Part shown: positions 1,540-54,940 of the stretch, one piece after another | How positions within the stretch are numbered: position 1 is the first letter of the stretch | Layout of the letters: every line of letters begins with the position of its first letter | Source of the DNA: Nitrospirota bacterium | GTDB lineage: Bacteria; Nitrospirota; Nitrospiria; 2-01-FULL-66-17 | Length of the DNA stretch: 62,895 bases | Reading direction: 5' to 3' | Assembly: GCA_016201825.1 (NCBI GenBank) | Contig: JACQCD010000085.1 | Span: 1 to 62,895, forward strand | The notes under the pieces: generated by a model | The model's database searches: none | Told to the model about the DNA's origin: nothing | Seen by the model: the letters and a program-made list of their open reading frames with translations, nothing else | Made by a program: the position numbers and the translations under genes

Positions 1540-1977
1540 ATGCTTGAAGCCGACGCGATTTTGAAAATCCTCCCCCACCGCTATCCCTTTCTGCTCGTGG
1601 ATCGTGTCCTGTCGATCGAGGAAGGCCGGGCGGTCGCGATCAAAAACGTCACGATCAACGAGCCGTTCTTTCAGGGTCATTTCCCCGGCCAGCCGATCAT
1701 GCCTGGCGTGCTGGTCCTCGAAGCGCTGGCTCAGGTGGGCGGTATCTTGGCGTTTCAAACCGCGAAGGAGGCCCAGGATCACCTGGTGATCTTTGTGGGG
1801 ATCGACCGCGCCAAGTTCCGCAGGCCCGTCGTGCCGGGCGATCGCCTCCGCCTCGAAGTCTCGCTCTTGCACAAGCGCCATCCGTATTGGCGGTTGCGGG
1901 GCGAGGCCTACGTGGAGGACGCGCTGGTGTGCGAAATGGAGTTCAAGGCGATGCTCTCGCCGCGGGAGACGTCATGA
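1540..1977 (+). CDS. fabZ: 3-hydroxyacyl-ACP dehydratase
   Basis: [35 protein letters not shown]. Confidence 0.98.
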
Positions 1978-2747: not shown

Positions 2748-2775
2748 CGTTGCAGGGCTGCTGAGCGACCGGCCG

Positions 2776-9528: not shown

Positions 9529-9531
9529 TCG

Positions 9532-9664
9532 GTAGGGGCGAGGCGGTGCCTCGCCCTGATCCGTCGGTCCATCAAGAGAGGGCGACCCACCGGAACCTGT
9601 GCCGTGCCGAAGGCACGGAATGCCAAATGGGCCTTCCTCACAGGTGGCGAAGCAACGCCCCTAC
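9532..9664. repeat. Inverted pair of GTAG-type REP palindromes (REPIN/BIME-like)
   Basis: GTAG-GGGCGAGGC-GGT-GCCTCGCCC at 9532-9556; opposite-strand GTAGGGGCG-TTGCTT-CGCC ending at 9664; internal hairpin CCGTGCC-GAA-GGCACGG at 9602-9618. Confidence 0.7.
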
Positions 9665-9676
9665 GCGGGTTGAAAC

Positions 9677-32322: not shown

Positions 32323-32841
32323 ATGCCTGTACATGCCATGACTCCGATTCCCGGTCCTCGGTGGTACGCCGTGTCGACGCGTTCGCGTCATGAAAAGTCC
32401 GTGAGGGATCACCTCGCAGGCCACGGGGTCGAGCCACTACTGCCCTTGGTCCGGCGCGTGAGCCAATGGAAGGACCGGAAAAAGGAAGTCGATCTGCCCC
32501 TCTTCCCGGGGTACTGTTTTGCGCGGTTTACCTGGGACGTGAACCTCGTGGTGCTCAAGGCTCCTGGGGTGGTGCGGATCATCGGAGGCTGCGGCAAGCC
32601 CGAGCCGATCCCGGATGTCGAAATGGATGCCGTGAAGCTGCTGATGACCCACACGCTTCCCTATGAGTCGCATCCCTATCTCCAGGAAGGCACGAGGGTC
32701 CGTATCGTGCGCGGTCCACTCGAGGGCATGGAAGGTGTCCTTGCTCGGAAAGAGAATCGACACCGGGTGGTGATCGCGGTTCACCTCATTCAACAGGCCG
32801 CCGCGGTCGAGATGGATTGGGCCGATTTAGCCCCCGTGTGA
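32323..32841 (+). CDS. UpxY/RfaH-type NusG-paralog transcription antiterminator
   Basis: WYAVSTRSRHEK, PLFPGYCF (NGN domain), KOW GTRVRIVRGPLEGMEG. Confidence 0.93.
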   Translation: MPVHAMTPIPGPRWYAVSTRSRHEKSVRDHLAGHGVEPLLPLVRRVSQWKDRKKEVDLPLFPGYCFARFTWDVNLVVLKAPGVVRIIGGCGKPEPIPDVEMDAVKLLMTHTLPYESHPYLQEGTRVRIVRGPLEGMEGVLARKENRHRVVIAVHLIQQAAAVEMDWADLAPV

Positions 32842-33458: not shown

Positions 33459-35855
<2,397 letters not shown>

Positions 35856-35859
<4 letters not shown>

Positions 35860-36722
35860 TCGATCGGGCGAGTCTTGGCGTTGGAACAGCCACCTTCCTT
35901 CCGCGCTATGGTCTGGCTGGGGAGGAGCTCAACGATTCGCCGCAGGCGGCGCTTTTCCAGTCCGCGGTGGAACAAGGTATCGTGTATATCGATACCGCCT
36001 CGGGGTATGGCGATAGCGAGTGCGTGCTTGGGGGGATGGCGGATCTGCTCACGTCACGCCGCGTGAGGCTCTGTACGAAACTCACTCCGAAGAGCGTGGC
36101 TGAGGGGCTTGGAGAGTCGCTTCGCCGGCTTCGAAGGGATCACGTCGACACGCTGCTGTTGCACAGCGCGCGAGGCGACGAGCTGACCGACCAGGCCGTC
36201 GCCGATGCGTTGGCGGCCATGAAGGACCGCCGCCACACCCAGCGAACCGGCGCCTCGACCTATGGCGCCGCCGACGCGCAACTCGCCCTGGGTCAGCCTT
36301 GGTGCGATGTGGTCCAGGTCGAGCACAGCATTCTGAACCCCTCGGTGGTCACCGTGCTCGAGCGGGCGAAGCGTTCGAACCAAGAGATTGTCGTGCGAAG
36401 CGTCTTGTGCAAGGGGCTGCTGACGGCCCGCCGCCACCGGGCGAGGCATCTGGATGCCTCCGCGAGAACGATGCTTGATCGGATCGAGAGTCGGGCGTTC
36501 GAATGGGGAATGGACCTGGAGGAGCTTGGGGTCCGCTTCGCACTGGACACGCCGGGCGTCGACGTCGTGCTGGTCGGGATCAGTCATCCCGCGGAGTTGG
36601 AGAAGGCGCTGGCCGCAGCACAGCGCCCGCCCCTCGACGCGTGGCAGATGGAGTCCCTGGAGGAGTTTGACTGCTCCATGCAGGATTGGTCCCACCCTGA
36701 ACGATGGTTGGTGCCGACGTGA
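35856..36722 (+). CDS. Aldo/keto reductase
   Basis: LGVGT...YG, IDTASGYGDSE, LLLHS, GASTY, VVRSVLCKGLL. Confidence 0.88.
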
Positions 36723-37723
36723 CTGGGGCGACTCGCGTGACGGTCATCGCGGAAGTGGCCCAGGGTTTCGAAGGGGACCCGTCCTTGGCCGTGATGTTCG
36801 TCCGGGCTGCGGCGGCCGGCGAGGCGGATCTCGTCAAGTTTCAACTGGTCTATGCCGACGAACTCGCGACGCCCGACTACCTCCATTACGAGTTGTTTCA
36901 ACGTCTCGAAATGTCGGATGCCGAATGGGAACGGGTGGCCGCCGAGGCGCGACGCGCCCACGTTGGTTTGGCGTTCGACGTGTATGGCCAGCAGTCGCTC
37001 CGCGTCGCGCTCAAGTGTGGGGCAGATGCCGTGAAGTTGCATGCGACCGACTTCTTCAACGCTCCGCTCGTTGAGGCCGTGCTCGGTCAGGCGCCGCGCG
37101 TGTTCTTGTCGGCGGGAGGCATCACGGTTGAAGAAGTGGCCGCCTTTCTCCGACCGTTGGAACCTTCAACGCTGAGCAAGCTGACCCTTCTGTATGGTTT
37201 TCAAGCCGAGCCCACCGCCGTGAGCCAAAACTACTTGGCCCGGTTGGCGACGTTGAGGATGAGATTCCCAGCTCTCCAACTCGGGTTCATGGACCATGCC
37301 GAGGGGGATTCCGACGAAGCCGGTTGGCTCGGGGTGTTGGCGCTCCCGTTCGGCGTCACGGCGATCGAAAAGCACCTTACTCTGGATCGTTCGCTCATGC
37401 TGGAAGATTATGTCTCCGCGCTGAGTCCTCGAGATTTTGCCCGATACGTGGCGCGCCTTCGCGCGGCCGGCGCCGCGCTGGGAAGCGGGGACCTCGAACT
37501 GACGCCGCCCGAATGCGTCTACCGGTCGAAAGCCCTCAAGACCGTCGTGGCGGCGCGTTCCTTGACGAGTGGGGCAACGATTCAGAGCGGGGATGTCGTC
37601 CTCCTCCGCGCGCCGCTCGCCGAGGGGCGCGAGCCTCTTCATCGGCTACCCGAGGTTGTCGACCGCCGGATCACCCGGGATGTGAATCGAGGACAGCCGG
37701 TGTATCGGGAGGATCTGGCGTGA
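36704..37723 (+). CDS. Divergent NeuB-family nonulosonate synthase with C-terminal SAF domain
   Basis: IAEVAQGFEGD, ADLVKFQ, GFMDH, IEKHLTLDRS. Confidence 0.85.
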   Translation: MVGADVTGATRVTVIAEVAQGFEGDPSLAVMFVRAAAAGEADLVKFQLVYADELATPDYLHYELFQRLEMSDAEWERVAAEARRAHVGLAFDVYGQQSLRVALKCGADAVKLHATDFFNAPLVEAVLGQAPRVFLSAGGITVEEVAAFLRPLEPSTLSKLTLLYGFQAEPTAVSQNYLARLATLRMRFPALQLGFMDHAEGDSDEAGWLGVLALPFGVTAIEKHLTLDRSLMLEDYVSALSPRDFARYVARLRAAGAALGSGDLELTPPECVYRSKALKTVVAARSLTSGATIQSGDVVLLRAPLAEGREPLHRLPEVVDRRITRDVNRGQPVYREDLA

Positions 37724-39885
37724 GAACACTGGTGGCCGCGTTGGCTTGTCGTGCGGGCGGGAGTCGGCTGTATGGGAAGCCGCTCCAGCTTCTGGACCTG
37801 ACGCGGAAGTTGAGCGTGATCGAGTACATGATCGAATCCCTCAAAACGGAGCCATCGATTGCGGAGATCGTCCTCGGCGTGTCTCAAGGCACGGAGAACG
37901 AACCGTTTCATGAGGTGGCGAGCCGCTACGGACTTCGATCCATCCGCGGCGATGAGATCGACGTGCTGGGGCGACTGATTCAGTGCGGTGAAGCGAGCGG
38001 CGCGAGCGATATCTTTCGGGTCACCACGGAGTCCCCGTTTACCTATCTGGACCCGTTGGCCGACGCGTGGCGGTTCCATCGCGACAACGGCAATGACCTG
38101 ACCGCCATCGATGGAGCGCCGGAGGGGTCGTCATTCGAAATCTACACGATGGAGGCCCTTCGCCGCTCCCACGAGCGCGGCGAGTCTCGTCACCGGTCGG
38201 AGTGCTGCAGCCTCTACGTCCGAGAACATCTTGAGGAATTCAGGATTCAGGTGCTGGAAGTGCCGTCCGAGTTGCAGCGATTGGATCTGAGGTTGACGAT
38301 CGACTACCCGGAAGACCTGGTGGTGTGCCGACGAGTGTATGCGCACCTTCGATCTCAAGCGCCGCGCATCCCGCTTGCCGGGATCGTGGAGTTTCTCGAT
38401 GCGCGTCCGGACCTCACCGCGCTGGTTGAACCCTACGTGGTTCCTCAACGGCTGTACCCCGTGACGTATCGGATGTCGCGGCCCGAACCGGTCGCAACCC
38501 GATCGATCCGAGTCTTGCGCGCGTCGGACGACTACCGAGCGCAATCGCACCGGTTCATTCCGGGGGGAGCCCATACCTACTCGAAGGGCGACGATCAGTT
38601 CCCGGCCTCGGCGCCGGCGGCCATGGCGCGAGGCCGAGGCGCACGGGTGTGGGATATCGACGGCAACGAGTACGTCGATTGCGCCATGGCGCTCGGCTCG
38701 GTGAGTTTGGGACATGCCTACGGGCCGGTCCTCGACGCGGTGAGGGAGCAGTTGAGGCTTGGCGCCAATTTCCAGCGCCCGGCCGCCATCGAACTGGAAT
38801 TCGCGCGCGAGTTCGTGTCCGCGGTGCCCGGCGCGGAACGGGTGAAGTTCGCGAAGAACGGGTCCAGCGTAACCACCGCCGCCGTCAAGTTAGCCCGTGC
38901 CTTTACGGGGCGGGAACTCGTGGCCTTTCCGGGCAACCACGCATTTTACAGCTATGACGACTGGTTCATCGGGAGCACGCTGTGCCACGCGGGGATTCCA
39001 GACGCCCACCGCGCGCTGTCGCTGACGTACGATTCGACCCGTCCCGACACGCTGGAGCGTTTGTTCCGGGATCATTCCGATCGGATCGCGTGTGTGATCA
39101 CCGAACCGGAGGAATTGATCCCGGCCTCCTCGGACGCCCTGCGCGAGGTCGCCTCGCTGGCTCGCCGATATGGCGCCGTGTTCGTTGCCGACGAGATGGT
39201 GACCGGCTACCGCGCCGGGTGGCCGGGAGCCTGCGCGGCCATGGGGATTCTTCCCGACCTCGCCACATGGGGCAAGGCGATTGGAAACGGCTTCTCCTTT
39301 TGCGCCCTGACGGGACGCGCGGACATCATGGACTTGGGCGGGATCAAACAGACGGCAGCGCCTCGCGTGTTTCTCGCCTCGACCACCCACGGCGGCGAGG
39401 CCCACGCGATCGCGGCTGCGCAGGCCGTGATGCGGACCTACCAGACCCATGACGTGCTGGGACATCATCGACGAACCGTGGCGGCGGTCGCGGCCGGCAT
39501 GCAGGCCAGCGTGGCGGCTCACGGGCTCAAGGATCTGGTGGAAGTGCATGCCGCGCCGTGGCGGGTGGTCACCGTCTGCCGCGATGCCGGCGGCCGACCT
39601 TCGTCCGGGCTGCGTACGCTCCTCCTTCAAGAGATGATCGGGCGCGGCGTGCTGTTTCAGGGCGTGTTTCTGCCCTGCTTTGCCCATACGGACGCCGACG
39701 TGGTTCGAATCACCGCGGCGTTTGAGGCGTCGTGCACGGTGTACCGCCAGGCCCTCGATCACGGGGTGGAGCGCTTCCTCATCGGGGCTCCGACCCGTCC
39801 GGTGTTTCGAAAGTACAATGGCTGCGAACAGGTCTGTCCTGCCCGGCCGTGCCCGCTGGAGGCGACGTGCCGGAAGGACGCATGA
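37720..39885 (+). CDS. Fusion of SpsF/PseF-type cytidylyltransferase and class III PLP aminotransferase (GSA-aminomutase-like)
   Basis: N-terminal ACRAGGSRLYGKP...LTIDYPED; C-terminal PGGAHTYSKGDDQ, FAKNGS, DEMVTG, TWGKAIGNG; GTG overlaps the upstream stop. Confidence 0.88.
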   Translation: MRTLVAALACRAGGSRLYGKPLQLLDLTRKLSVIEYMIESLKTEPSIAEIVLGVSQGTENEPFHEVASRYGLRSIRGDEIDVLGRLIQCGEASGASDIFRVTTESPFTYLDPLADAWRFHRDNGNDLTAIDGAPEGSSFEIYTMEALRRSHERGESRHRSECCSLYVREHLEEFRIQVLEVPSELQRLDLRLTIDYPEDLVVCRRVYAHLRSQAPRIPLAGIVEFLDARPDLTALVEPYVVPQRLYPVTYRMSRPEPVATRSIRVLRASDDYRAQSHRFIPGGAHTYSKGDDQFPASAPAAMARGRGARVWDIDGNEYVDCAMALGSVSLGHAYGPVLDAVREQLRLGANFQRPAAIELEFAREFVSAVPGAERVKFAKNGSSVTTAAVKLARAFTGRELVAFPGNHAFYSYDDWFIGSTLCHAGIPDAHRALSLTYDSTRPDTLERLFRDHSDRIACVITEPEELIPASSDALREVASLARRYGAVFVADEMVTGYRAGWPGACAAMGILPDLATWGKAIGNGFSFCALTGRADIMDLGGIKQTAAPRVFLASTTHGGEAHAIAAAQAVMRTYQTHDVLGHHRRTVAAVAAGMQASVAAHGLKDLVEVHAAPWRVVTVCRDAGGRPSSGLRTLLLQEMIGRGVLFQGVFLPCFAHTDADVVRITAAFEASCTVYRQALDHGVERFLIGAPTRPVFRKYNGCEQVCPARPCPLEATCRKDA

Positions 39886-39925
39886 GGCCGTCGCGCCGCG
39901 GCCATTCAGACGGTCGGCTTCCCAG

Positions 39926-40990
39926 GTGAATCTCCTCTTTCGGGTCGACGCCTCGGTCGAAATCGGGATGGGGCACCTCATGCGCTGTCTAGCCTTGGCC
40001 CAAGAGTGTCATCAAGCGGGCGACGATCTCCTGTTCGTCATGGCAACGCCCATGCCGACGTGTGTCGCCAGGGTTCGCTCGGAAGGGTTCCGCGTGGCGT
40101 CGATCAGCGCCCACCCCGGAAGCGACATGGACGCGAGCGAGACCGCCGCGATGGCCGATCAGATGAATAGTCCGTGGGTGGTAATCGACGGCTACCACTT
40201 TGCCGCCCGTTACCAGCAGATCATCAAGGGTGCGGGGTTTCGGCTCCTCATGGTGGATGACTGGGCGCATGCCGACTCCTATTGCGCCGACATCGTCTTG
40301 AATCAAAACATTGGCGCCGAAGAGCGGCTCTATCGATGCCGAGAACCTCACAGTGTCCTGCTGCTGGGGACTGGCTACGCCCTCTTGCGTCGGGAGTTTT
40401 TGGAGTGGCGGGGACGGCGAGATCGGGTGATCCCCAGCGTGGCCCGGAGGGTGCTGGTGACGTTTGGAGGATGCGATCCCGCCAATGCGGCGCTGACGGT
40501 CCTCCACGCCCTAGAGCGGATCCATGAGGCCGGCCAGGACCTGGATGTGGTGGTGGTCAGTGGCGGCGGCAATCCACACCACGATCGGCTCCAGTCGGCC
40601 GTCGAAACGTCTCCGTTGGCGGTGCGTCTTGTCCAGGACGCGAGGAATATGCCCGAGCTGATGGCGTGGGCGGATCTGGCTGTTTCGGGGGGGGGCAGCA
40701 CGTCATGGGAGCTCGCGTTTATGGGAGCGCCTTCCGCCTTGGTGGTCCTGGCGAAGAATCAACAGGCCGTTGTGACGGGGTTGGCTGGCGCCGGGGTCGC
40801 GGTGAACCTGGGGTGGATCAACGAGGTGTCGACCGCGCGGCTCGTAGACGTCTTAACGCGCCTGATGCGCGACCCCGCTCAGCGCCGCCTCATGTCCAAT
40901 CTGGGCCAGAAGTTGGTCGACGGGGGCGGGAGGGCGCGAGTGCGTCAAGCCCTGCACGAGCGGTTGCCGGCGAAATTGGTGGGAACGTGA
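39926..40990 (+). CDS. pseG: UDP-2,4-diacetamido-trideoxy-altrose hydrolase
   Basis: FRVDASVEIGMGHLMRCLALA, IDGYHF, LLRREF, TFGGCD, GGGSTSWEL. Confidence 0.9.
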   Translation: MNLLFRVDASVEIGMGHLMRCLALAQECHQAGDDLLFVMATPMPTCVARVRSEGFRVASISAHPGSDMDASETAAMADQMNSPWVVIDGYHFAARYQQIIKGAGFRLLMVDDWAHADSYCADIVLNQNIGAEERLYRCREPHSVLLLGTGYALLRREFLEWRGRRDRVIPSVARRVLVTFGGCDPANAALTVLHALERIHEAGQDLDVVVVSGGGNPHHDRLQSAVETSPLAVRLVQDARNMPELMAWADLAVSGGGSTSWELAFMGAPSALVVLAKNQQAVVTGLAGAGVAVNLGWINEVSTARLVDVLTRLMRDPAQRRLMSNLGQKLVDGGGRARVRQALHERLPAKLVGT

Positions 40991-41012
40991 CCAGCGAAGC
41001 GAGGAACGGTCG

Positions 41013-41201
41013 ATGAGATCGAGGGCGATCCCTGTGATCGAGATCGACGGGCGACGGGTCGGGCCCGGCCAGCCGTTTTATATGGATTTAGTTCAAGATA
41101 GAGAATGGCGAGAACAGAGAAGTCGATCTGGCCGTCTTCTGGGAAATGGACAGGGTTCAAAGCGGGTGGCGAAAGTAATGGTGAAGGCCAGCAAGATATG
41201 A
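41013..41201 (+). pseudogene. Chimeric scar: 5' stub of a NeuB/PseI gene fused to the 3' tail of a foreign pseG
   Basis: Codons 1-23 resemble the PseI N-terminus; the remainder aligns with the PseG C-terminus; abrupt GC drop at ~41082. Confidence 0.75.
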
Positions 41202-42250
41202 CCGCCAGACCAATCAAGATTGGTGACCGTTTGGTGGGAGATAGGGAACGATGTTACATTGTCGCTGAGGCGGGTAGCAATCATAATGGAAAGTTCGAAC
41301 AAGCACTACGACTTATTGACGTAGCCGTTGAGGCAGGGGCGGATGCGGTTAAATTCCAGACCTTTAAGGCTGAACGAATGTATCCCGAGACAGCGGGACA
41401 GTCTGACTATTTAAAGATCAATCGCTCAATATGTGACATTATCCGTGAGATGGAGATGCCTTCAGATTGGCTTCCTCATCTTGCCGATTATTGCCGCCAG
41501 AGTAACATCGAATTCATCTCTTCTCCATTTGACGAAAGCTCTGCAGATTTATTGGAACCTTATGTGAATGTTTTCAAAGTCGCCTCGTATGAGATGACCC
41601 ATGTCCCGTTACTGCGCCATCTTGCACGAAAGGGAAAACCTTTAATTGTCTCTACTGGGACTGCAACGCTGGAAGAGGTTAAGTCTGCTATAGAGGTAAT
41701 ACGTGCCGAAGGAAGCAATCAGGTTATTCTCCTCCAATGCACGGCCAGCTACCCGGCCCCAATAGATACAATAAATGTCCGTGCGGTTGTCACTCTTCGT
41801 GAAGCTACCGGCTTACTGACAGGGCTCTCAGATCATTCACGAGACCCCATCGTTGCCCCTATGGCTGCGGTCGCGTTAGGGGCATGTCTGATTGAAAAGC
41901 ATTTTACTTTGAGCAATCGCTTGCCGGGTCCTGATCATCAGTTTGCAATAGAGCCTAGCGAACTGGCCGAACTTGTACGCCGGGTTCGGGAAGTAGAAAA
42001 GGTGCTGGGACATGGTCGAAAGGAGACTTTTTCTGTTGAGGATGAATTACGAGCATTTGCAAGGCGTAGTATCTTTGCGACCCGTGATATCTCTGCTCGG
42101 GAAACGCTGACACCTGATAATATTGCGGTTCTACGTTGCGGAAAGTTAGGGTTTGGTCTGCCTCCAATGGAGTTTGACAAAATGTTGGGCCGAAAGGCGG
42201 TAAGACCAATTGCGAAGGAATCCCTGGTTACTTTCGACGCTGTGGAATAA
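41198..42250 (+). CDS. NeuB/PseI-family nonulosonic acid synthase (lower-GC block)
   Basis: VAEAGSNHNG, ADAVKFQT, KVASYE, GLSDHS, IEKHFT, SAF domain. Confidence 0.93.
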   Translation: MTARPIKIGDRLVGDRERCYIVAEAGSNHNGKFEQALRLIDVAVEAGADAVKFQTFKAERMYPETAGQSDYLKINRSICDIIREMEMPSDWLPHLADYCRQSNIEFISSPFDESSADLLEPYVNVFKVASYEMTHVPLLRHLARKGKPLIVSTGTATLEEVKSAIEVIRAEGSNQVILLQCTASYPAPIDTINVRAVVTLREATGLLTGLSDHSRDPIVAPMAAVALGACLIEKHFTLSNRLPGPDHQFAIEPSELAELVRRVREVEKVLGHGRKETFSVEDELRAFARRSIFATRDISARETLTPDNIAVLRCGKLGFGLPPMEFDKMLGRKAVRPIAKESLVTFDAVE

Positions 42251-42252
42251 AT

Positions 42253-42723
42253 ATGAGAATCCGCTTGGCCGATGTGGATGATATCGAACTCCTATGGCAG
42301 TGGAGAAACGATCCAGTGGTCAGACAACATTCTTTCAATTCGGATCCAATTCCCTGGGCTACTCATCAACGCTGGTGTTCCCAAAAGATGAGTTCTTCTA
42401 GTACCAAGATTTACACGCTGGAGGATAGTGGCAAACCGGTTGGACAGATTCGTTATGAACGAATGAATGATGCGACTGCCGAAATAGGTGGTATTTCGAT
42501 TGCCACAGAAGAACGGGGGAAAGGTTATGGGAAGACCATTCTTACCCAAACAATTCCTATCGTGACGGCAGATCTTAAGGTCAAGAACCTGACTGCCCTG
42601 GTAAAGGAAGAGAATATCGCTTCAGCGCGGATGTTCCTGTCATCTGGTTTTTACTTGAATGGCCAGGTTACAAAACATGGATATGTTTGTAGTCATTTTA
42701 TCGTTTCCTGTTCGGATCGTTAA
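42253..42723 (+). CDS. GNAT N-acetyltransferase (PseH-like)
   Basis: WRNDP.VR..S, H..W, GQIRY, RGKGYGK, N.AS..F. Confidence 0.85.
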   Translation: MRIRLADVDDIELLWQWRNDPVVRQHSFNSDPIPWATHQRWCSQKMSSSSTKIYTLEDSGKPVGQIRYERMNDATAEIGGISIATEERGKGYGKTILTQTIPIVTADLKVKNLTALVKEENIASARMFLSSGFYLNGQVTKHGYVCSHFIVSCSDR

Positions 42724-44658
42724 GTGCCGCAATATAACCTTGCCGCGACAAAGTCCATATTAGTACCCGAAATCCACCCGACCAATCTGTTGCTGTTCTG
42801 GATTCTTTCGTTCTTTGCGAATGTGAGGGCATACACGATTCATGAGTTCTGTGTCCGGCTTGGTTGTTCCAGGATCCAGCCCATCGATCTCGGGCAGCAT
42901 TTCTCCCCGGACGACCTCTATCTCATGAGGTCGAAGGTTGTGGACGCATGGGAACCCCTGGAAAGGCATTTCCCGGCTTCACGTTGGAGCGGCGGATACC
43001 GACGGCACGTTCTCGATTTTTCAGGGAAGGCGAAGCAAGACTTGGCCAAACGCTTTGAGATCGCGTTCTTGCTCCACCTCATTGCGGAGCGATCAAGGAC
43101 CCCAACCTATGTTGTGGAGTCGAGGCACTCGATATATCTGAGCCGTCTTGATGGGTTTCCTGCGCACCTCCGGATGCGGACCCTGAAGAGCCTGTCGTTC
43201 GCGAACACGATGTGTGACGCCGTGTATAGCCACTGTCTCAATCTGATCGGCTGGTTGAATCTAGCGGTCAATCTTCTTCGCGGTTGTATGGTACGACGAG
43301 GTATCAGTGCTGGAGGGCGAGTCGCCGTCATGTGGGACGGGGTGAACCCGAACGAGCTCGATCTGTCCAGCGATAAACGGTCTTTTACCTGGGTTGTTGA
43401 CGATGAGAAGCTTTCGAGAGCGAAGACGCTCTTTATTCTCCCACGAAAGGTCGATGCCGACTGGCAGGACAAGCTGAACCGCTTGAGAGGGGAGTGCGGG
43501 CGATCAGGGTTTCGTGCGGGAACACTCCTTGACCTGTACCGGATTGTGCCGGTCTCACTGCTACTCTTCCACTTCGCAAGATCTTTGGAATTAGTTTTAA
43601 GGTTGGGGTTCTATTCGATCGCGAAGCGAGAGGCTCTGGATCAGACGGCATATCTCATACGCATGATGGCCTATGATCCCATCGTCAACCATTTTCGTCC
43701 AACATGTTACGTGACAAGCGGGTCCGCCCTTGGGAATGAACATCCGGTGGTTGTCTATCTAAAGGCCCTCGGTGTTCGGACCGTGATTTACTGTTACGGC
43801 AGCAACGCCCATCTTTTTGCCGAGCATTCTCCGCAATGTGATTTCAGGTGGGTGGTTTTCTCGGGGATCCTTTCTGATTTTCTTCTTGTGTGGAGCAGGG
43901 CTTTTCAGGTCTTTGTTGAATCACATTCCCAGACGCAGGTAAGAGTTGAGGTCGTGGGACCGTTAATGCCAGGCGATGAGCGGGTTTGCCTGACGAATCC
44001 CGCAGTGATGAAACGGCAAGTGGGGAAGAGTCGGCAACGGGACGCGGAGGGGTTGAAATGGGTCGTTGCGTTCGATGAAGCCCCTATCCCTCAAAGTTTG
44101 CGGAGGCTTTACCCATACCAGTACACCCAGGAATACAGTCGGCTGTTTCTTCGGGATGTGGTCGCGCTAATCGATGAGTTTTCTGACATCCTGCTCCTCT
44201 ATAAGCCCCAGAGAAGCCTCTCAAGGGCCAAGTTCACGTATTCGGCGGAGTTCATAGGTTTTGTAGGGCAGTTGGTACGACACGAGCGAGCGGTGGTCTT
44301 GGACGATGATGTCAACCCATGGGTTCCGGTTGCGGTGGCTGACATGGCAATTGCGATGCCTTTTACGTCCCCGGCCATCGCATGCCTGCATTATGGTAAA
44401 CGTGCTTTGTTCCATGATCCATCTGGTATTGCTATCCACCACAGATATGAGGGAATGTCCCAGTATATTACACATGGCTATGCCGAACTTCGGAAGAAGA
44501 TCGATCATTGCCTCCATTCGGAGTATTCCACGGATAGCGATAAGCAGCGACTGTGGGGCGAGGTCGGTGATTTTATCGGTCGGGTTCCCGGAAGCAACTC
44601 GAGCGAGCCATTCCGTGACTTTCTTGTGAGCCTAGAGGCGGGGGGGACAGACCAATGA
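42724..44658 (+). CDS. Uncharacterised polysaccharide-biosynthesis protein (possible GT-B fold)
   Basis: 644-aa ORF abutting both neighbours; C-terminal YKPQR, PFTSPA..A...GK motifs like surface-carbohydrate proteins. Confidence 0.65.
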   Translation: MPQYNLAATKSILVPEIHPTNLLLFWILSFFANVRAYTIHEFCVRLGCSRIQPIDLGQHFSPDDLYLMRSKVVDAWEPLERHFPASRWSGGYRRHVLDFSGKAKQDLAKRFEIAFLLHLIAERSRTPTYVVESRHSIYLSRLDGFPAHLRMRTLKSLSFANTMCDAVYSHCLNLIGWLNLAVNLLRGCMVRRGISAGGRVAVMWDGVNPNELDLSSDKRSFTWVVDDEKLSRAKTLFILPRKVDADWQDKLNRLRGECGRSGFRAGTLLDLYRIVPVSLLLFHFARSLELVLRLGFYSIAKREALDQTAYLIRMMAYDPIVNHFRPTCYVTSGSALGNEHPVVVYLKALGVRTVIYCYGSNAHLFAEHSPQCDFRWVVFSGILSDFLLVWSRAFQVFVESHSQTQVRVEVVGPLMPGDERVCLTNPAVMKRQVGKSRQRDAEGLKWVVAFDEAPIPQSLRRLYPYQYTQEYSRLFLRDVVALIDEFSDILLLYKPQRSLSRAKFTYSAEFIGFVGQLVRHERAVVLDDDVNPWVPVAVADMAIAMPFTSPAIACLHYGKRALFHDPSGIAIHHRYEGMSQYITHGYAELRKKIDHCLHSEYSTDSDKQRLWGEVGDFIGRVPGSNSSEPFRDFLVSLEAGGTDQ

Positions 44659-45401
44659 CACAGCTCAACATCGATCAGGTGTTCGCGACGACGGCATCTC
44701 GTGCATGTGATTTCCAGTTCACAGCCGAGATTGCCAAAGTGTTCGACGATATGCTGGTGCGAAGTGTTCCTTTTTACAGCGAACAGCAATTCATGATCAA
44801 GGAGCTCGCCAAGAAATTTCATATTAAGGACACCAGAATTTACGACCTGGGTTGTTCGACCGGGACTACTTTGATCTCCTTGGCCCAGGAAATCGGCGGC
44901 GATGCAGGTGAGCTGATCGGTTACGACAATTCGTTTCCGATGATCGACAAAGCCAAGACCAACATTAATCAATGCGGATTGGACGGTCTGATCAAAATCG
45001 ACTATGCGGATCTGAACGGTGCCGTCGTGATCGAGAATGCCAGCGTGGTCACCATGTGTTGGACGCTCCAGTTCGTGAGGCCCCTTCAGCGGACTGCTTT
45101 GACCAAGCAGGTGTACAACGGGTTGGTCGAGAACGGCGTCCTGATTCTCATGGAGAAGGTCTTGACCAATAACACCGATATGAATCGGTTATTCATCGAG
45201 ACCTATTACGAGTTTAAGAAACGGAATGGCTATTCCAATGAGGAAATCGCCAAAAAGAGAGAAGCCCTGGAGAACGTGTTGGTGCCCTATCGTATTGAGG
45301 AGAACATCGAACTCTTGAAGCGAAGCGGGTTCGAGATGGTCGAGACGTTTTTCCAATGGTATAACTTTGTCGGTTTTTTGTGCGTGAAGAAGGGACGATA
45401 A
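44655..45401 (+). CDS. cmoA: Carboxy-S-adenosyl-L-methionine synthase-like (CmoA)
   Basis: VFDDMLVRSVPFY, YDLGCSTG, TLQF, EKV, KREALENVL, FQWYNF. Confidence 0.85.
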   Translation: MTQLNIDQVFATTASRACDFQFTAEIAKVFDDMLVRSVPFYSEQQFMIKELAKKFHIKDTRIYDLGCSTGTTLISLAQEIGGDAGELIGYDNSFPMIDKAKTNINQCGLDGLIKIDYADLNGAVVIENASVVTMCWTLQFVRPLQRTALTKQVYNGLVENGVLILMEKVLTNNTDMNRLFIETYYEFKKRNGYSNEEIAKKREALENVLVPYRIEENIELLKRSGFEMVETFFQWYNFVGFLCVKKGR

Positions 45402-45418
45402 GAAGAAAGGGCAGCGAG

Positions 45419-46456
45419 GTGGACGAGCAACAATTGATATCGCGGATCACGGCTGAGCTCCGAGCGTATCGAGAATTTGGCATTAACTCCCTGCAGCTCG
45501 ACCACCTGATTCCGAAGTGGAAAACGCTGACGGAGCAGGAGTCGAAGCGTTTTATCAAGGACGACGAACTGGATGTCGATGTGCTGCGTAATTTCAGGCG
45601 GTCACAGGTGTTTATCTCCGACGCTCCGAGTTGGGATCTCAATCGCGTGAGCGCCCTGAACCTTCTTCACGGCGGGCGCCGTGGCATACGGAAGATGCTG
45701 ATCGAATGCCTGGAGGTGCTGAAGAAGTGCCAGTATGACGAGCTTCTGAAAAAATATCCCTGCCATACCGCGGGCAATCCCTATGTGTTCAACTATCAAG
45801 GATACCGGTACACCCTGCGCTGGTTCAAACACATCTGTTTTTTGGGGCTCATGAACCGGGTGTTGGGGCCGAAGCTGAAAAGCGGCTTTGTCGCGCTCGA
45901 CATCGGAAGCAGTTATGGGATCTTCTCGAGCCTTGTGAAAAGAGAGTACCCGGAGTCCCACTGCGTGTTGGTGGACTTTCCCGAGCAGTTGATTTTGGCG
46001 TATTACTTTTTGGGGACGTGCTTTCCAGGTTGCCGTATCGCCGGAATCCGCGAGGTCATCGAAGCCAAAGAAGGGGTCTCTCGATCGTTTTTGGAGCAGT
46101 ATGATTTTACCCTCATCCCGTGCCAATACTATGAGCGACTTCTCGGTGGTTCGCTCGACCTGGTGACCAACTTCGCCTCCCTCGGTGAGATGAAAAGAGA
46201 ATGGTTTAACTACTATCTCAAGGCTCAGGCATTTTTGACCGCCAAGTATCTGTTTGCCGTTAACCGGGTCGAGTCCTACCCAACCTATGACACCGACTTG
46301 ACCATCCTGGATTACCCGGTCTGGGATCAGGCGAAGCGGCTCCATTTCGGAGTGTCGCCAGCGTTTTGGGGGTATAACCTCTGTTCAACGAGGAACTTGT
46401 TCTTTTACCGCACCTATCCGACTCAGCCGTACTTCGAGTACATCGGTCGAATTTAA
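45419..46456 (+). CDS. Putative sugar O-methyltransferase (class I SAM fold)
   Basis: LDIGSSYG, DFPEQLILAYYFL, NFASLGEM. Confidence 0.75.
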   Translation: MDEQQLISRITAELRAYREFGINSLQLDHLIPKWKTLTEQESKRFIKDDELDVDVLRNFRRSQVFISDAPSWDLNRVSALNLLHGGRRGIRKMLIECLEVLKKCQYDELLKKYPCHTAGNPYVFNYQGYRYTLRWFKHICFLGLMNRVLGPKLKSGFVALDIGSSYGIFSSLVKREYPESHCVLVDFPEQLILAYYFLGTCFPGCRIAGIREVIEAKEGVSRSFLEQYDFTLIPCQYYERLLGGSLDLVTNFASLGEMKREWFNYYLKAQAFLTAKYLFAVNRVESYPTYDTDLTILDYPVWDQAKRLHFGVSPAFWGYNLCSTRNLFFYRTYPTQPYFEYIGRI

Positions 46457-46470
46457 AATGACTGCGTGGT

Positions 46471-48303
46471 TTGACCCTATCGCACTGGTTGTGCCCGAGT
46501 AGGCCGGTGACAGAGTCCAAGTACACCATCATCTGGTACTTCTTGAGGGCCTATAAACCCCTTTACGGCGGGGTGCTGGTCGTCACGGTTCTTGGCGCGC
46601 TTTTGGAGAGCGTGAACCTCGCGGCGTTTTTCCCGGTGTTTCAATCGCTCCTGAATCCGTCGTCGAGCGGAGACGGTGGAAAAATCCTCGGTATTGCGAG
46701 AGGAGTTGGCCGGTTGCTGCCGTTTCAGGACCCCGTCATCGTCGCATCGATAGTATTGGTTGCCGTGATGCTCATGAAATCCGCGGTGGCTCTTCTGCGG
46801 GAAGGCTTGGTGGCGAAGGCGAGTGGACGGGTTCTCTATGACGTCAAGAACCGTCTCTTGGGAACGTATGCCGCGTCGTCCTATCAATTTTTCTTGGACA
46901 ACAAGCAGGGAGCCTTGGTCTACAATTTCATCGCTGCGCCACACAAGGTCTCCCTCCTTCTCTTGAAGGTTCCGCAATTACTGGCGGATCTGTTTAAGGT
47001 GGTTGCCATTGCTGCGGTCCTGCTCGTCGTGCTTCCGGTTGCCGCCTTGGTTCTGGCGATCGCAGCGGGGGTCTATTACTTGGGCACCCATTATGTGTCG
47101 ACACGGGTGTCGTATCACACCGGAAAGGCCAGGGCGACTGCGAGCGCGGAGCAGGCCACCATCGCCAATGAATTTCTGAATGGGATCAGGCAGATCATGG
47201 CGGTGGGGACGCGGCGATTCTGGCTCGCTCGGTTCGAGCAAGAGAACCGGACCTTTTGCCAGCTCTACGTCAAAGACCTCGTGTGGTTAGCGATGCCGAA
47301 GTACTTGATGGAGACGACGGCGGTGTTGCTCCTGCTCGGGTTGATGTTGGTCGCCAAAGGATCCGGGTCTGGCGACCTCGCTGCCCACCTGCCGGTCATG
47401 GGGGTATTCGCCATGGCGGTCTTCCAACTCTTGCCCTCGCTCACATCATTCGGTCGGCAGAGAATGGAGATGATGGGGGCGCTGGCCGATTCGGAGCGTG
47501 TCTATCTCGCGTTGACCGAAACCACGCCTCGCCCGAAGGAAGGTGTACGGGTTCTCGATACGTTTCGGAACGCCATCGTCTTCGAACATGTGTCGTTCGC
47601 CCATCAGGGAAGAGAACCGCTTTTGAAACAGGTGAACCTTCGGTTCGAAAAAGGCCAGGCGATCGCAATCTGCGGGCCATCCGGAGCGGGGAAGACGACC
47701 CTGGTCAACCTGCTCCTCGGTTTGTTTGAGCCGAGCGAAGGCCGGATCACGGTTGATGGCGTGCCCCTGGCCGACTATACGACCGAGTCATGGCTGAGTA
47801 AGATCGGACTCGTCAGTCAAGAGCCGTTCATTTTTCACTCGACGATCGCCGACAACATTCTGTTCGGACGACACGGCGACTACACGAGAGATGACTTGAT
47901 GCAGGCCGCGATGACCGCGAACGCCCACGCGTTCATCGAGGAACTTCCCGACGGCTACGACACCATCGTCGGGGAACGCGGTATGAAGTTGTCGGGAGGG
48001 CAGCAGCAGCGCATTGCCATCGCCAGAGCCTTACTCGGTCGTCCGGAGATCCTGATCTTTGACGAGGCCACGAGCTCTCTCGACACGATTTCGGAACGCC
48101 TTGTTCAGGACGCCATCGAAGCGATCTCGAAAGACCATACGACCATCGTCATCGCCCATCGGTTATCCACCATCGCCAGCGCACAGAAAATCGTCGTGCT
48201 GGAGACCGGCCGGGTGGTTGAGGAAGGTTGCCATGGCGAGTTGTTGGAGATCGGCGGACAGTACTCCCGCATGATCGCCGCCGGTCTGGGCTCGACGCAT
48301 TGA
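46471..48303 (+). CDS. MsbA/PglK/Wzk-like ABC exporter (glycan flippase candidate)
   Basis: TMD plus GPSGAGKTT, LSGGQQQRIAIARA, DEATSSLD. Confidence 0.9.
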   Translation: MTLSHWLCPSRPVTESKYTIIWYFLRAYKPLYGGVLVVTVLGALLESVNLAAFFPVFQSLLNPSSSGDGGKILGIARGVGRLLPFQDPVIVASIVLVAVMLMKSAVALLREGLVAKASGRVLYDVKNRLLGTYAASSYQFFLDNKQGALVYNFIAAPHKVSLLLLKVPQLLADLFKVVAIAAVLLVVLPVAALVLAIAAGVYYLGTHYVSTRVSYHTGKARATASAEQATIANEFLNGIRQIMAVGTRRFWLARFEQENRTFCQLYVKDLVWLAMPKYLMETTAVLLLLGLMLVAKGSGSGDLAAHLPVMGVFAMAVFQLLPSLTSFGRQRMEMMGALADSERVYLALTETTPRPKEGVRVLDTFRNAIVFEHVSFAHQGREPLLKQVNLRFEKGQAIAICGPSGAGKTTLVNLLLGLFEPSEGRITVDGVPLADYTTESWLSKIGLVSQEPFIFHSTIADNILFGRHGDYTRDDLMQAAMTANAHAFIEELPDGYDTIVGERGMKLSGGQQQRIAIARALLGRPEILIFDEATSSLDTISERLVQDAIEAISKDHTTIVIAHRLSTIASAQKIVVLETGRVVEEGCHGELLEIGGQYSRMIAAGLGSTH

Positions 48304-49997
48304 TGCCGATCGACCTGCAAGCTGGCGTGGTCGTGCCTCCAATCGGTTCCCTCCATGCATCCGGGCAGCGGCACGCCCCTGCCTCGGAGGAGTCGGTCCA
48401 TCCGTCGTTTTCCCGCCTGGCAGAGGCCCTCGGTACCGCCCGACGGCTCTCTCCCGGCCTCCCGGTCCTCGGGATACAGTGGCTCCATCTGATGCATCCC
48501 TTGCATCCCGTCCAAGAAGAGCTTCTTCGGATCGCTGACAGGACGACCAAGGATCCTGGGACACTGGCGCGAGGTGGAGGATGGTTAAAACGAATCAGCG
48601 AATTGGCAGGGTTGGTCTGGCGGCAGGGCCGCTGTGTGGCGTATGCCCTCTACTTGACGAGTGTGTTGGGCAGGCTCCGTTGGCGCATGCGCAAAGCGGT
48701 TGCACAGCTCAGGAGTCAGCACTTCGACGTGGTGGCGAAGACGTGGTGTTTCGGTGTCGTCTCGGAAGAACGGGATTTTTATTACGGGGACCTGCAGCGC
48801 CGAATGGCCGAGCGTGGTCGACGGATGCTGTTGCTCGCCGGTGACGGTGCCGGGTCCGACTGGCGCGTTTTTTCGCGCACCCATGTGTCTGTCGACGAGC
48901 CGTGCAAACTACCTGAATGGGCCCTGGTTCCGCTCACGGCGCCGCTCTGCATGGCGTTGAAGCAGCTTGCGGGATCGATCAGGCTGCGCGGCATCGGAGG
49001 CCGCTCATCGAGTGTTCTTCTTCGGCAGATTGGGGCGCGCGCGAGTCGTGACTGTCTCCTCCCGAGCACGACACGCAACGGACTCTTCTTCTGGATCGGG
49101 CAAACCGCCGTTCGGCGGTGGCGCCCGCGCGTGTTCGTCACGCTCTACGAGGGGCATGGCTGGGAAAAGTGCGCGTGGTGGGGCGCGAAATCGGCCGACC
49201 CGACGTGCGTCACGACCGGCTACCAGCACACCGTGCTCTTTCCTGAATCAAGGTCATTAACGCGGCCGGTGATCGAAGGGGCGCAACGATCGGTGCCCGA
49301 TCTGGTTTTGTCGTCGGGGACGATTCCTTCGGACATGATGCGGCCCGGGCACGCGGGACAGGGGACACGGTTCATTCGATTCGGGAGTTTCCGGCACAAG
49401 GGTTACGCGGTCGACCGCCCGAGCGACGCGGGTCTGAAGACCGTCTTGGTGACGCCCGAAGGCATCGCGTCGGAGACTAAGGCCCTGTTTGCCTTTGCGT
49501 ATCAGTGCGCCCTGAGAATTCCCGCGTACACGTTTATTCTCAGGGCTCATCCTGCGATCCCCATGACGGCGGCTCTGAAGCTATCGGCCATCGACCTCGC
49601 CGGCGCGCCGAATCTTGTGGTGTCCGAACAGGCCAGTATCGAGGACGATTTCAAGCGGTCTTCCGTCCTGATGTACCGAGGTTCCTCGTCTGTCCTTTAC
49701 GCGATTTTGAATGGTCTCTTTCCGCTCAACATCCATCTTGCCCCGCTATTCGACACGGATCCGTTGTATCAACTGGAGTGCTGGCGGAAAAGCTGTTCCA
49801 CGCCCGAAGGGTTTGCCGATGCGCTCACGCAGCACGAAACGAGGACGAGGGAAGACCTCTCGACGGAGTGGAGGGCGGCCCTGCGCTATGTGAGCGAGTA
49901 CACCGTGCCGGTCACGGTCGACGGCATCGACCAGTTCATCCGAGCGACCGGTCTCCAAGGCGCAGGGGCATCTCGATTGTCGCCGGGGGACCCATGA
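48303..49997 (+). CDS. Uncharacterised polysaccharide-biosynthesis protein (possible glycosyltransferase)
   Basis: ATG overlaps the upstream TGA; TLYEGHGWE, GYQH, LRAHP, YRGSSS motifs. Confidence 0.6.
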   Translation: MPIDLQAGVVVPPIGSLHASGQRHAPASEESVHPSFSRLAEALGTARRLSPGLPVLGIQWLHLMHPLHPVQEELLRIADRTTKDPGTLARGGGWLKRISELAGLVWRQGRCVAYALYLTSVLGRLRWRMRKAVAQLRSQHFDVVAKTWCFGVVSEERDFYYGDLQRRMAERGRRMLLLAGDGAGSDWRVFSRTHVSVDEPCKLPEWALVPLTAPLCMALKQLAGSIRLRGIGGRSSSVLLRQIGARASRDCLLPSTTRNGLFFWIGQTAVRRWRPRVFVTLYEGHGWEKCAWWGAKSADPTCVTTGYQHTVLFPESRSLTRPVIEGAQRSVPDLVLSSGTIPSDMMRPGHAGQGTRFIRFGSFRHKGYAVDRPSDAGLKTVLVTPEGIASETKALFAFAYQCALRIPAYTFILRAHPAIPMTAALKLSAIDLAGAPNLVVSEQASIEDDFKRSSVLMYRGSSSVLYAILNGLFPLNIHLAPLFDTDPLYQLECWRKSCSTPEGFADALTQHETRTREDLSTEWRAALRYVSEYTVPVTVDGIDQFIRATGLQGAGASRLSPGDP

Positions 49998-53587: not shown

Positions 53588-53993
53588 TGCCATGCTGGTA
53601 AGCGAAGTCATGATGTCGTTAGATCGGATTCCGGTGATCGGCGAGACCGTTATTCTGAAAGAGGCCCTTGAAGAGATGGGTCGATCACGGCTAGGCATTG
53701 CCTGTATTGTGGATGTCGACACCAAGCTATTGGGCATTCTCACGGATGGTGATATACGGCGGAATTTACTCAAGGTCCAAAAACCATTCTCCGCATTTTT
53801 TGTGGACGATGCGCTCGATCATGCCATTCGATCACCTCTGACGATACAGCCGAACGACACCCTGGTGCATGCGATTGGCCTGATGGGCCAAAAACAGATC
53901 TGGGATCTGCCAGTCGTGGATGATCAGGGAACCCTGGTGGGGCTGCTGCACTTACACCCTGCGGTTCAGGCGTTACTCGGAATTCGAGAGTGA
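53568..53993 (+). CDS. CBS-pair protein (like the KdsD/KpsF C-terminal domain, no SIS)
   Basis: GILTDGDIRR, LPVVDD.G.LVGLLHLH. Confidence 0.85.
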   Translation: MSTQKNDAMLVSEVMMSLDRIPVIGETVILKEALEEMGRSRLGIACIVDVDTKLLGILTDGDIRRNLLKVQKPFSAFFVDDALDHAIRSPLTIQPNDTLVHAIGLMGQKQIWDLPVVDDQGTLVGLLHLHPAVQALLGIRE

Positions 53994-54940
53994 TGTACTC
54001 TGGACAAACAGCAATCGATTATCTTGGGACTGAAGTCAGTAAGGACGACTCGGGCGAGTCCTCTCACTGGCGCAAATATCACTCCTCGTTTCGATTTACG
54101 GGGGATGGGTTTGAAGGCTTGCAGGGCTTCGGTGTGAGTGAGAAGCCTTACCGAGGGTTGCGCTTGGGGTTGCACCGCCTGTTACAACGTAGGTTTCGCC
54201 GGATGGGAGCAGAATTTCCCCAATTCACGGCGATTGACAGGCTAGCTGATAAAATAATGTCCCGGCAGGGGCGCGCCTACGATCTGGATGTGCTTCGGCA
54301 GTCGCTCACGCTTGCCTTTTTGAGAGATCGGATTCCTTACGCTATTTCGCCTCAGGCAACGGTTTGCGTGATTGGGGATGGGTTTGCGTCGATGACCGCC
54401 CTGTTGCTCGCCAGCCGTTCGGCAGGTCTGGTTGTGCTGATCAACCTCACGAAAACCTTGCTTGTTGATCTCTGGCATCTCAAACTTTGGATGGGAGAAG
54501 AGGCCTTTGCATCCCGTGTTGATCTTGTCACGGATGAAGAGGGCCTTTCACGTGCGCTCGCGACAACGGCCGATATTGACGGGGGGGGGCGAGTGGTGGC
54601 GATCCAGGCCTCGCGTCATGAGTTGCTGAAGCGATGTCCGGTGGATCTTGTCTTGAACATCGTATCGATGCAGGAAATGGACCCCCCGGTCATTGCGGCC
54701 TATTTCGATGACATGCGCGCCATTGCATCCCAACGGCAACTGGTTTTCTATTGCTGCAATCGCGAGGAGAAGACACTGCCAGACGGCACGGTGACTTGTT
54801 TTGCAGCGTATCCCTGGCACGAAGGCGACCAGATTCTCGTGGATGAGCTTTGCTTATGGCACCAGTTCTACTATGTATTGAGGCCGTTATTTTTCAGACC
54901 CTATGACGGTCCAATTCGACATCGGCTGGTGACTCTCTAA
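53990..54940 (+). CDS. Putative sugar O-methyltransferase
   Basis: VIGDGFA, NIVSMQEM, FYCCNREEK; in-frame G9 tract at 54581-54589. Confidence 0.65.
   Translation: MMYSGQTAIDYLGTEVSKDDSGESSHWRKYHSSFRFTGDGFEGLQGFGVSEKPYRGLRLGLHRLLQRRFRRMGAEFPQFTAIDRLADKIMSRQGRAYDLDVLRQSLTLAFLRDRIPYAISPQATVCVIGDGFASMTALLLASRSAGLVVLINLTKTLLVDLWHLKLWMGEEAFASRVDLVTDEEGLSRALATTADIDGGGRVVAIQASRHELLKRCPVDLVLNIVSMQEMDPPVIAAYFDDMRAIASQRQLVFYCCNREEKTLPDGTVTCFAAYPWHEGDQILVDELCLWHQFYYVLRPLFFRPYDGPIRHRLVTL

Follow-up and report, generated by a model that had tools for sequence, protein, structure and literature searches.

A predicted carboxy-SAM-dependent carboxymethylation module in a surface-polysaccharide operon of a Nitrospirota bacterium

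Introduction

It is established that the synthase CmoA supplies carboxy-S-adenosyl-L-methionine (Cx-SAM) to a recruited homologue of methyltransferases, and this logic has been described for tRNA, 3-thiaglutamate, Bacillus microcin C and phage DNA (PMC10491745; PMC12783734). In the 62,895-nucleotide contig JACQCD010000085.1 of a Nitrospirota bacterium (the whole stretch is called the window here), a cmoA gene lies inside an operon for a surface glycan. It has no cmoB beside it and is followed by a gene for a protein resembling sugar O-methyltransferases (the partner). What is a CmoA doing in such an operon, and which enzyme would consume its product? A preliminary description of the window had suggested that Cx-SAM is repurposed there as a donor for O-carboxymethyl ethers on an O-antigen or nonulosonate. 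In this study, the pair was followed through sequence families, structure models and comparative genomics. We consider it likely that the two enzymes carry out Cx-SAM-dependent carboxymethylation of a surface-glycan sugar.

Results

The CmoA protein and its partner

The two genes are adjacent on the same strand:

44655–45401, + strand: cmoA, putative carboxy-S-adenosyl-L-methionine synthase of 248 aa, non-tRNA 'C132-W133' clade (TIGR00740)
45419–46456, + strand: predicted Cx-SAM-dependent sugar carboxymethyltransferase of 345 aa, TIGR04371-related clade with R134-W-x-K137-H138 and motif I LDIGSSYG

The CmoA protein scores 246.5 bits on TIGR00740 (cut-off 193.3), matches profile positions 2–239 of 239 and aligns end to end with the solved structures 1im8 (E = 5.9e-49) and 4gek (E = 3.7e-45). 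In E. coli CmoA the cofactor is contacted by Tyr39, Asp62, Gly64, Ser66, Asp89, Asn90, Asp117 and Asn132, the main chain of residue 132 also touches the methionine moiety, and Arg199, the family signature, forms a salt bridge to the carboxymethyl carboxylate (PMC3663124). The window protein retains Y39, D62, G64, S66, D89, N90 and D117. Its KREALENV aligns with KRSMLENV of E. coli, so that Arg199 is kept, as it is in all 120 nearest relatives. The signature is thus intact, as described previously, and N132-F133 alone is changed, to Cys-Trp. Since the Cys is found in 118 of the 120 closest database relatives (the Trp in 107/120), it is a trait of the clade, and decay of the enzyme was rejected as its cause. 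Judged by family membership and intact signature residues, the window CmoA is inferred to make Cx-SAM.

Maximum-likelihood analysis placed the cmoB-linked CmoAs (E. coli, H. influenzae and two Omnitrophota) together in one clade with 100/100 support. The window CmoA falls outside this clade and groups with CmoAs of other partner-bearing loci. Its nearest relatives (L068, L069 and L070) also adjoin other types of methyltransferase: one neighbour, in a Thermoproteota archaeon, is of the FkbM type, and the others are small Methyltransf_23/11 genes. These three loci are rich in glycosyltransferases, sulfatases or sulfate activation.

Translational coupling of cmoA to an upstream glycan gene had been noted before and is borne out by the ATGA at 44655–44658, in which the cmoA start overlaps the TGA of a gene for a 644-aa PFTS-motif protein. 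The cmoA gene ends with TAA at 45399–45401. Exactly 17 nt separate this stop from the GTG of the partner at 45419, and the GTG start fits the N-terminus of homologous proteins. The partner had been described as a class I sugar O-methyltransferase-like protein, and it does score 91.6 bits on TIGR04371 'putative sugar O-methyltransferase' (cut-off 44), a partial match to profile positions 101–273 alone. A Pfam search with the 345-aa protein gave zero matches. An AlphaFold model based on 33 homologues reached a predicted local distance difference test score (pLDDT) of 92.6 and a predicted template modelling score of 0.92. The top Foldseek matches of this model were all class I methyltransferases, with template modelling scores of 0.25–0.38 on the query and up to 0.52 on the target. 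None of these solved structures was close (query score at most 0.38), and a sequence search of the Protein Data Bank (PDB) returned nothing useful. LDIGSSYG and D186, the acidic residue after strand 2, are invariant. Going by the model, the partner is a Rossmann-type class I methyltransferase with novel N- and C-terminal elaborations.

Conservation of the pair

Loci were searched for by relatives of the partner alone, with one genome per species. The resulting 24 loci came from six or more phyla (Omnitrophota, Planctomycetota, Nitrospirota, Chloroflexota, the candidate phylum Peribacteria, Rhizobiaceae and Burkholderiales). A CmoA-family gene was present in 19 of them (18 by tblastn, one by clustering), nearly always as the immediate neighbour, on either side, and was a far more constant neighbour of the partner than any other gene. 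Exactly one CmoA-family gene was found in 21 of 23 genomes, including three in which the pair is split across short contigs. Independently, 301 genomes were sampled without bias from the phylum Omnitrophota; seven carried the partner, 27 a CmoA-family gene and five both (odds ratio 31, Fisher P = 7.5e-5). Co-occurrence of the two genes, put forward in the preliminary description as a check of the idea, is therefore found, with the pair syntenic across phyla. Cultured, non-pathogenic bacteria that carry these genes include Flavimaribacter sediminis WL0058, in which the CmoA-family protein is of class 2 (see below), Hoeflea sp. CAU 1731 and Polynucleobacter bastaniensis.

The association extends to remote relatives. 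P0316, a distant homologue with the same arginine signature (R type, see below; E = 1e-35), adjoins a CmoA paralogue of class 2 (also below). A marine branch of 435-aa R-type proteins was followed in 76 metagenome loci, 16 of them well flanked. A CmoA-family gene lay within 5 kb in 14/16 of the well-flanked loci and in 42/76 overall. An exhaustive profile search at E <= 1e-30 yielded 93 clusters (50% identity), and relaxing the threshold to E <= 1e-10 raised their number to 945.

Some loci differ from the common arrangement. In a Peribacteria locus (L020, 2600–3335) in-frame stops or a frameshift interrupt cmoA, and the adjoining partner gene is intact. In Rhizobiaceae (L025–L028, ~1800–9900) the pair stands behind a subtilase, four carrier-protein/thioesterase didomain genes and GT25 glycosyltransferases; as there is no nonulosonate pathway in this context, the acceptor may differ in that lineage. 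In one locus from Omnitrophota (L036, 1–614), a gene of the MbnB/TglH/ChrH family precedes the pair at a distance of 9 kb. Cx-SAM is also used in the 3-thiaglutamate pathway, of which TglH is a member, and the proximity is probably a coincidence.

Absence of CmoB

The absence of cmoB and of a separate housekeeping cmoAB, the former stated and the latter raised as a check in the preliminary description, was confirmed for the source genome as far as it is assembled (89% complete). The best score for CmoB (TIGR00452) in the source genome was 31 bits against a cut-off of 275, and a search for a second cmoA found none. No CmoB was detected in any of 26 partner-bearing genomes (the source and 25 others). 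Among 201 sampled Nitrospirota genomes only seven carry cmoA, and none of the seven carries cmoB. The stretch of the contig that bears cmoA has a G+C content of 50–57%, compared with 62–70% for the rest. This sporadic distribution, together with the low G+C, points to an accessory, horizontally moving gene and not to a housekeeping one. As a positive control, the same CmoB search found six adjacent cmoA-cmoB operons in the Omnitrophota sample, and none of these six genomes has the partner. A tRNA role for the window CmoA was rejected on distribution and phylogeny.

An arginine signature in the partner

Partners linked to CmoA share R134-W-x-K/R137-H138 in the helix preceding motif I. As a rule, the corresponding helix of class I methyltransferases borders the cofactor on its methionine side. 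Of 120 homologues 117 have R134, as do all 22 locus copies, and most of the best 150 profile-search matches have Arg at this position. By contrast, CmoA-less members of TIGR04371 from Nitrospirota, including the protein encoded at 53990–54940 of the window, have Asp, Asn and Ser in place of R134, K137 and H138, and their motif I reads GAGYG. MAFFT and a profile-profile alignment with hhalign (probability 99.6%) agree on the correspondence of R134 with the Asp. The window thus holds an Arg type (45419) and an Asp type (53990) together.

Exceptions are rare and mostly coincide with the loss of CmoA. Among genomes without any CmoA, only G330 encodes a close homologue, and this has Met134; in G391, a partner-bearing genome in which CmoA was likewise not detected, the variant residue is Lys. 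A well-flanked metagenome locus without CmoA (L126) encodes Ser at this position, and a relative of the Asn type stands without an adjacent cmoA. The Gly134 protein P0107 comes from the front copy of a tandem pair that follows a cmoA. In locus L065 (2758–5553), cmoA precedes two tandem transferase paralogues, the first with Gly134/Asn138 and the second of the Arg type, which may reflect a division of labour between methyl and carboxymethyl transfer.

In CmoB the carboxylate of Cx-SAM is bound by K91, Y200 and R315, and in the phage enzyme CmoX by R350, which replaces an Asn (PMC10491745; PMC12783734). By analogy, we infer from the alignments that R134, with K137 and H138, holds the extra carboxylate of Cx-SAM in the partner. 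A basic residue near the cofactor pocket had been named beforehand as something to look for, and a clade-specific Arg in place of the Asp of CmoA-less relatives was indeed found; its placement in the pocket is a prediction from sequence. That R134 merely tracks loci for acidic sugars was considered and rejected, as the Asp-type paralogue of the same window sits in a Kdo-like cassette (Kdo, 3-deoxy-D-manno-octulosonic acid).

A second class of CmoA paralogue

Apart from typical CmoAs (class 1, to which the window enzyme belongs), a 236-aa paralogue referred to as class 2 occurs next to the partner. It was found in L012, L022, L025–L028, L031, L032, L034, L064 and L071 and in 42 metagenome loci among L075–L142, and it is the usual companion of the transferase in marine metagenomes. 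Class 2 proteins match TIGR00740 over its full length with 120–161 bits (cut-off 193.3), far above any other family, and the possibility that they are unrelated methyltransferases was rejected on this ground. They keep most cofactor ligands. Arg199 is absent, and an invariant Lys stands at E. coli position 203, on the same face of the helix. In two genomes (G425 and G441) a true CmoB is present and class 2 is the sole CmoA-family gene, which suggests that class 2 also makes Cx-SAM. Moreover, classes 1 and 2 are interchangeable next to the same R-type partner. Since the window CmoA is of class 1, the uncertainty about class 2 does not touch the window enzyme directly.

The surrounding operon

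The source genome, from the phylum Nitrospirota, has 2.8 Mb and is 89% complete. Almost all genes of the window lie on the + strand, and those around the pair are as follows:

32323–32841, + strand: UpxY-family transcription antiterminator (NF033644, 119.8 bits, cut-off 100), at the head of the same-strand array of glycan genes
33498–42723, + strand: pseudaminic-acid-type nonulosonate pathway with PseB, PseC, aldo-keto reductase (AKR), divergent NeuB-like protein, cytidylyltransferase-aminotransferase fusion, PseG, PseI/NeuB and PseH-like GNAT acetyltransferase
42724–44658, + strand: PFTS-motif polysaccharide biosynthesis protein of 644 aa (TIGR04417, 146.9 bits, cut-off 100; MPFTSP present)
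46471–48303, + strand: HepA/MsbA-like ATP-binding cassette (ABC) exporter with fused transmembrane and nucleotide-binding domains (Pfam ABC_membrane and ABC_tran), 14 nt past the transferase gene
48228–49997, + strand: soluble protein 'F17' of ~570–590 aa (the 589-aa protein), true start probably near 48303
53990–54940, + strand: second TIGR04371-like methyltransferase, Asp type (DLDVLRQS; 42.2 bits, cut-off 44), within a KdsA/KdsB-like cassette

In the nonulosonate pathway, PseB (511.7 bits, cut-off 407.75), PseC (446.6, cut-off 423.5) and PseG (238.5, cut-off 153.55) are above their cut-offs. The synthase scores 355.6 bits on the NeuB model and 295.2 bits on the PseI model, both under cut-off, and the PseH-like GNAT reaches 66 bits on the PseH model, also under cut-off. 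The fusion of the cytidylyltransferase to an aminotransferase is seen from its Pfam matches. Most long loci encode a pathway for a CMP-activated ulosonic acid of the NeuB or Kdo type; the Rhizobiaceae loci are without it.

TIGR04417 is a family without an assigned function. An AlphaFold2 model of the PFTS-motif protein (pLDDT 81.5) matched OtsA, UDP-GlcNAc 2-epimerases and the polysialyltransferase 5wcn in Foldseek, so that the protein has a predicted GT-B fold and is probably a glycosyltransferase. Its gene immediately adjoins the pair in eight or more loci (L012, L014, L016, L017, L020, L022, L065 and L071). An ABC exporter or the 589-aa protein lies 3' of the pair in many loci. The exporter, for which the best NCBIfam scores in the window are 387 bits (HepA family) and 347 bits (MsbA), each under its cut-off, follows the pair directly in L036, L038 and L012 as well. 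Homologues of F17, for which Pfam and NCBIfam gave zero matches, occur 3' of the pair in L017, L020, L022, L065 and L066.

Past F17 the window continues with an RmlD-like reductase, an amidohydrolase and the KdsA/KdsB-like cassette. The Asp-type methyltransferase of this cassette is presumed from its residues to be an ordinary user of S-adenosyl-L-methionine (SAM). It lies 7.5 kb downstream of the pair and is the sole other methyltransferase-fold gene of the window, so that none other adjoins the pair. A scan for promoters and terminators within the operon gave nothing above shuffled sequences. The source genome also encodes a prephenate dehydratase, which indicates that the co-substrate prephenate is available.

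Discussion

In this study we provide evidence from comparative genomics that an orphan CmoA feeds the transferase encoded next to it. This part of the earlier proposal of Cx-SAM repurposing is strongly supported. The O-antigen that the proposal named as a target is not: the UpxY-family antiterminator and the ABC exporter suggest a capsule or exopolysaccharide instead. The best explanation for the arrangement of the genes appears to be a self-contained carboxymethylation module in a horizontally acquired part of a capsule or exopolysaccharide operon.

In the proposed mechanism, CmoA would convert SAM and prephenate to Cx-SAM. The downstream protein of class I methyltransferase fold would bind Cx-SAM rather than SAM, with Arg134, K137 and H138 gripping the carboxylate, and would move the carboxymethyl group onto a sugar nucleophile, most likely a hydroxyl. 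The acceptor could be a CMP-activated ulosonic acid of the pseudaminic or Kdo type, or the growing polymer. Assembly of this polymer would fall to the GT-B PFTS-motif protein encoded next to the pair, and its export to the neighbouring ABC transporter. The sugar would thereby gain a glycolic-acid ether (+58 Da), and the surface glycan additional negative charge.

The pair resembles the CmoA-CmoB system of E. coli, which modifies tRNA to 5-carboxymethoxyuridine at position 34 (cmo5U34), in that the first enzyme is the same and a co-encoded methyltransferase-fold enzyme carboxymethylates, or in the window would carboxymethylate, an oxygen nucleophile. However, the window partner has nothing in common with CmoB except the class I fold (no match to TIGR00452), the genes form part of an operon for a polysaccharide, a sugar is the predicted acceptor in place of 5-hydroxyuridine (ho5U) in tRNA, and the CmoA belongs to a separate clade. 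The phage system CmoA-CmoX, which produces 5-carboxymethylcytosine in DNA (PMC12783734), is a further parallel: there too, an orphan CmoA without CmoB is combined with a repurposed methyltransferase homologue. R350 of CmoX replaces the Asn of SAM-using relatives, just as R134 of the window protein replaces the Asp of SAM-type relatives. Unlike the predicted system of the window with its TIGR04371-type partner, CmoA-CmoX is experimentally proven; its acceptor is cytosine C5 of DNA and its transferase a homologue of C5-methyltransferases. In TglE/TglF (3-thiaglutamate) and MccS/MccB-CTD (Bacillus microcin C; PMC10491745), cluster-recruited CmoA homologues likewise supply a dedicated carboxymethyltransferase. 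The carboxymethyl group goes to a peptide thiol in the former and to a nucleotide antibiotic in the latter, and the transferase families and types of gene cluster are different.

With TIGR04371 'methyltran_NanM' the partner shares the C-terminal 170 profile residues, the class I fold, the D-L-V-x-N ... S-x-x-E-M block and the location in sugar-tailoring loci. It differs in its N-terminal 100 residues, which contain a GGRRG loop, in motif I (GSSYG, not GAGYG), in having Arg134, K/R137 and H138 for Asp, Asn and Ser, and in the linkage of its clade to CmoA-family genes. As far as the sequences tell, the novelty appears to lie in the family of the transferase, in the carbohydrate predicted as acceptor and in the setting in a glycan operon. 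A search of full-text literature found no paper that ties Cx-SAM to glycans.

Several observations weigh against this interpretation. The same literature search found no natural O-carboxymethyl sugar in lipopolysaccharide (LPS) or other bacterial glycans. Class 2, which lacks R199 and is under the TIGR00740 cut-off, accompanies about half of the partners, and the window CmoA itself has Cys for the N132 that contacts the methionine moiety in E. coli. Two of the seven partner-bearing genomes of the Omnitrophota sample have no detectable CmoA, and neither has the well-flanked R-type locus L130. The carboxylate bound by R134 might belong to an acidic sugar substrate instead of the cofactor. Finally, as the source genome is 89% complete, a cmoB could have been missed, for this genome alone.

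The strongest competing explanation, to which we assign a small but real probability, is that the 45419 protein uses SAM, like any ordinary sugar O-methyltransferase. Another enzyme, for example of the FkbM type, would then consume what CmoA makes, or this product would have another role, and the adjacency would reflect mere joint membership of glycan-tailoring islands. The family is annotated as putative sugar O-methyltransferases, FkbM-type methyltransferases often adjoin the pair (L031–33, L036 and L071), close relatives of the CmoA are paired with other methyltransferase types, and the spatial role of R134 is deduced from alignments. However, no other methyltransferase-fold gene adjoins the pair in the window, where the nearest is the distant Asp-type gene. 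The adjacency to CmoA-family genes is far steadier than that to any other neighbour, and the R134/Asp split and its exceptions follow the presence of CmoA, not the sugar context.

Somewhat less probable still is that the CmoA-family proteins of these loci, especially class 2, make no Cx-SAM and act as plain methyltransferases or form another SAM derivative, so that the two genes stand for successive tailoring steps. The missing R199 and the low TIGR00740 scores of class 2 would fit this idea, as would N132C in the window CmoA. Against it, the window CmoA is of class 1, lies above the cut-off and keeps R199 and all other cofactor ligands, and C132 is shared by nearly all of its nearest relatives (118/120). 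The two genomes that combine a true CmoB with class 2 alone and the exchange of both classes beside the same R-type partner argue in the same direction. A service of CmoA to tRNA cmo5U, with an unrecognised, non-homologous or unassembled CmoB and an incidental placement in the glycan operon, is very improbable. It could appeal to the incompleteness of the genome and to tRNA modification as the canonical role of CmoA. Yet CmoB is found in 0/26 of the partner-bearing genomes and readily elsewhere by the same search, cmoA is present in just 7/201 Nitrospirota, the gene lies in a low-GC insert, and its product falls outside the fully supported cmoB-linked clade.

Carboxymethylation of a surface-glycan sugar thus remains the reading that we prefer for the window pair. 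For the wider family we are evenly divided: the R134-type branch of TIGR04371, with its roughly 90 clusters at 50% identity (E <= 1e-30), along with the distant 435-aa marine branches, could be an unrecognised family of Cx-SAM-dependent sugar carboxymethyltransferases, fed by CmoA or by class 2 synthases with Lys203.

The natural Cx-SAM acceptors known are of four types (tRNA, peptide thiol, nucleotide antibiotic and phage DNA). If our interpretation is correct, carbohydrates would join this list, and with them would come a new class of glycan modification: glycolate in ether linkage, of +58 Da and with a negative charge, introduced by a new transferase family with a simple cofactor switch from Asp to Arg. 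This would account for cmoA without cmoB in many bacteria and some archaea, and the annotations 'tRNA (cmo5U34) methyltransferase' and 'sugar O-methyltransferase' of these genes would need to be corrected. Potentially, carboxymethyl-ether sugars are a widespread, overlooked capsule or LPS-like decoration in groundwater and marine bacteria, carried by Omnitrophota, Planctomycetota, Nitrospirota, Chloroflexota and Rhizobiaceae. Glycoengineers would obtain a natural pair of enzymes with which E. coli, already a producer of Cx-SAM, could equip sugars with a carboxyl handle. The question is thus of relevance to both glycobiology and SAM enzymology.

It is tempting to speculate that Cx-SAM is a general donor for envelope chemistry, as is also suggested by parallel gene pairs of another kind. 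Five further genomes of Nitrospirota and two of Omnitrophota, all devoid of CmoB, contain an orphan cmoA that is followed, with overlapping or abutting ends, by a gene for a membrane methyltransferase of the PEMT/ICMT family with 240–256 aa. This neighbour looks like a second kind of Cx-SAM consumer, one that would act at the membrane. The following loci represent the arrangement:

L042, 7625–8395, − strand: orphan cmoA-PEMT/ICMT locus
L043, 7995–8744, − strand: orphan cmoA-PEMT/ICMT locus
L044, 4767–5489, − strand: orphan cmoA-PEMT/ICMT locus
L046, 1088–1855, − strand: orphan cmoA-PEMT/ICMT locus
L061, 6592–7347, + strand: orphan cmoA-PEMT/ICMT locus
L062, 4984–5718, − strand: orphan cmoA-PEMT/ICMT locus

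In L042, the gene after the cmoA-PEMT/ICMT pair is Wzi-like.

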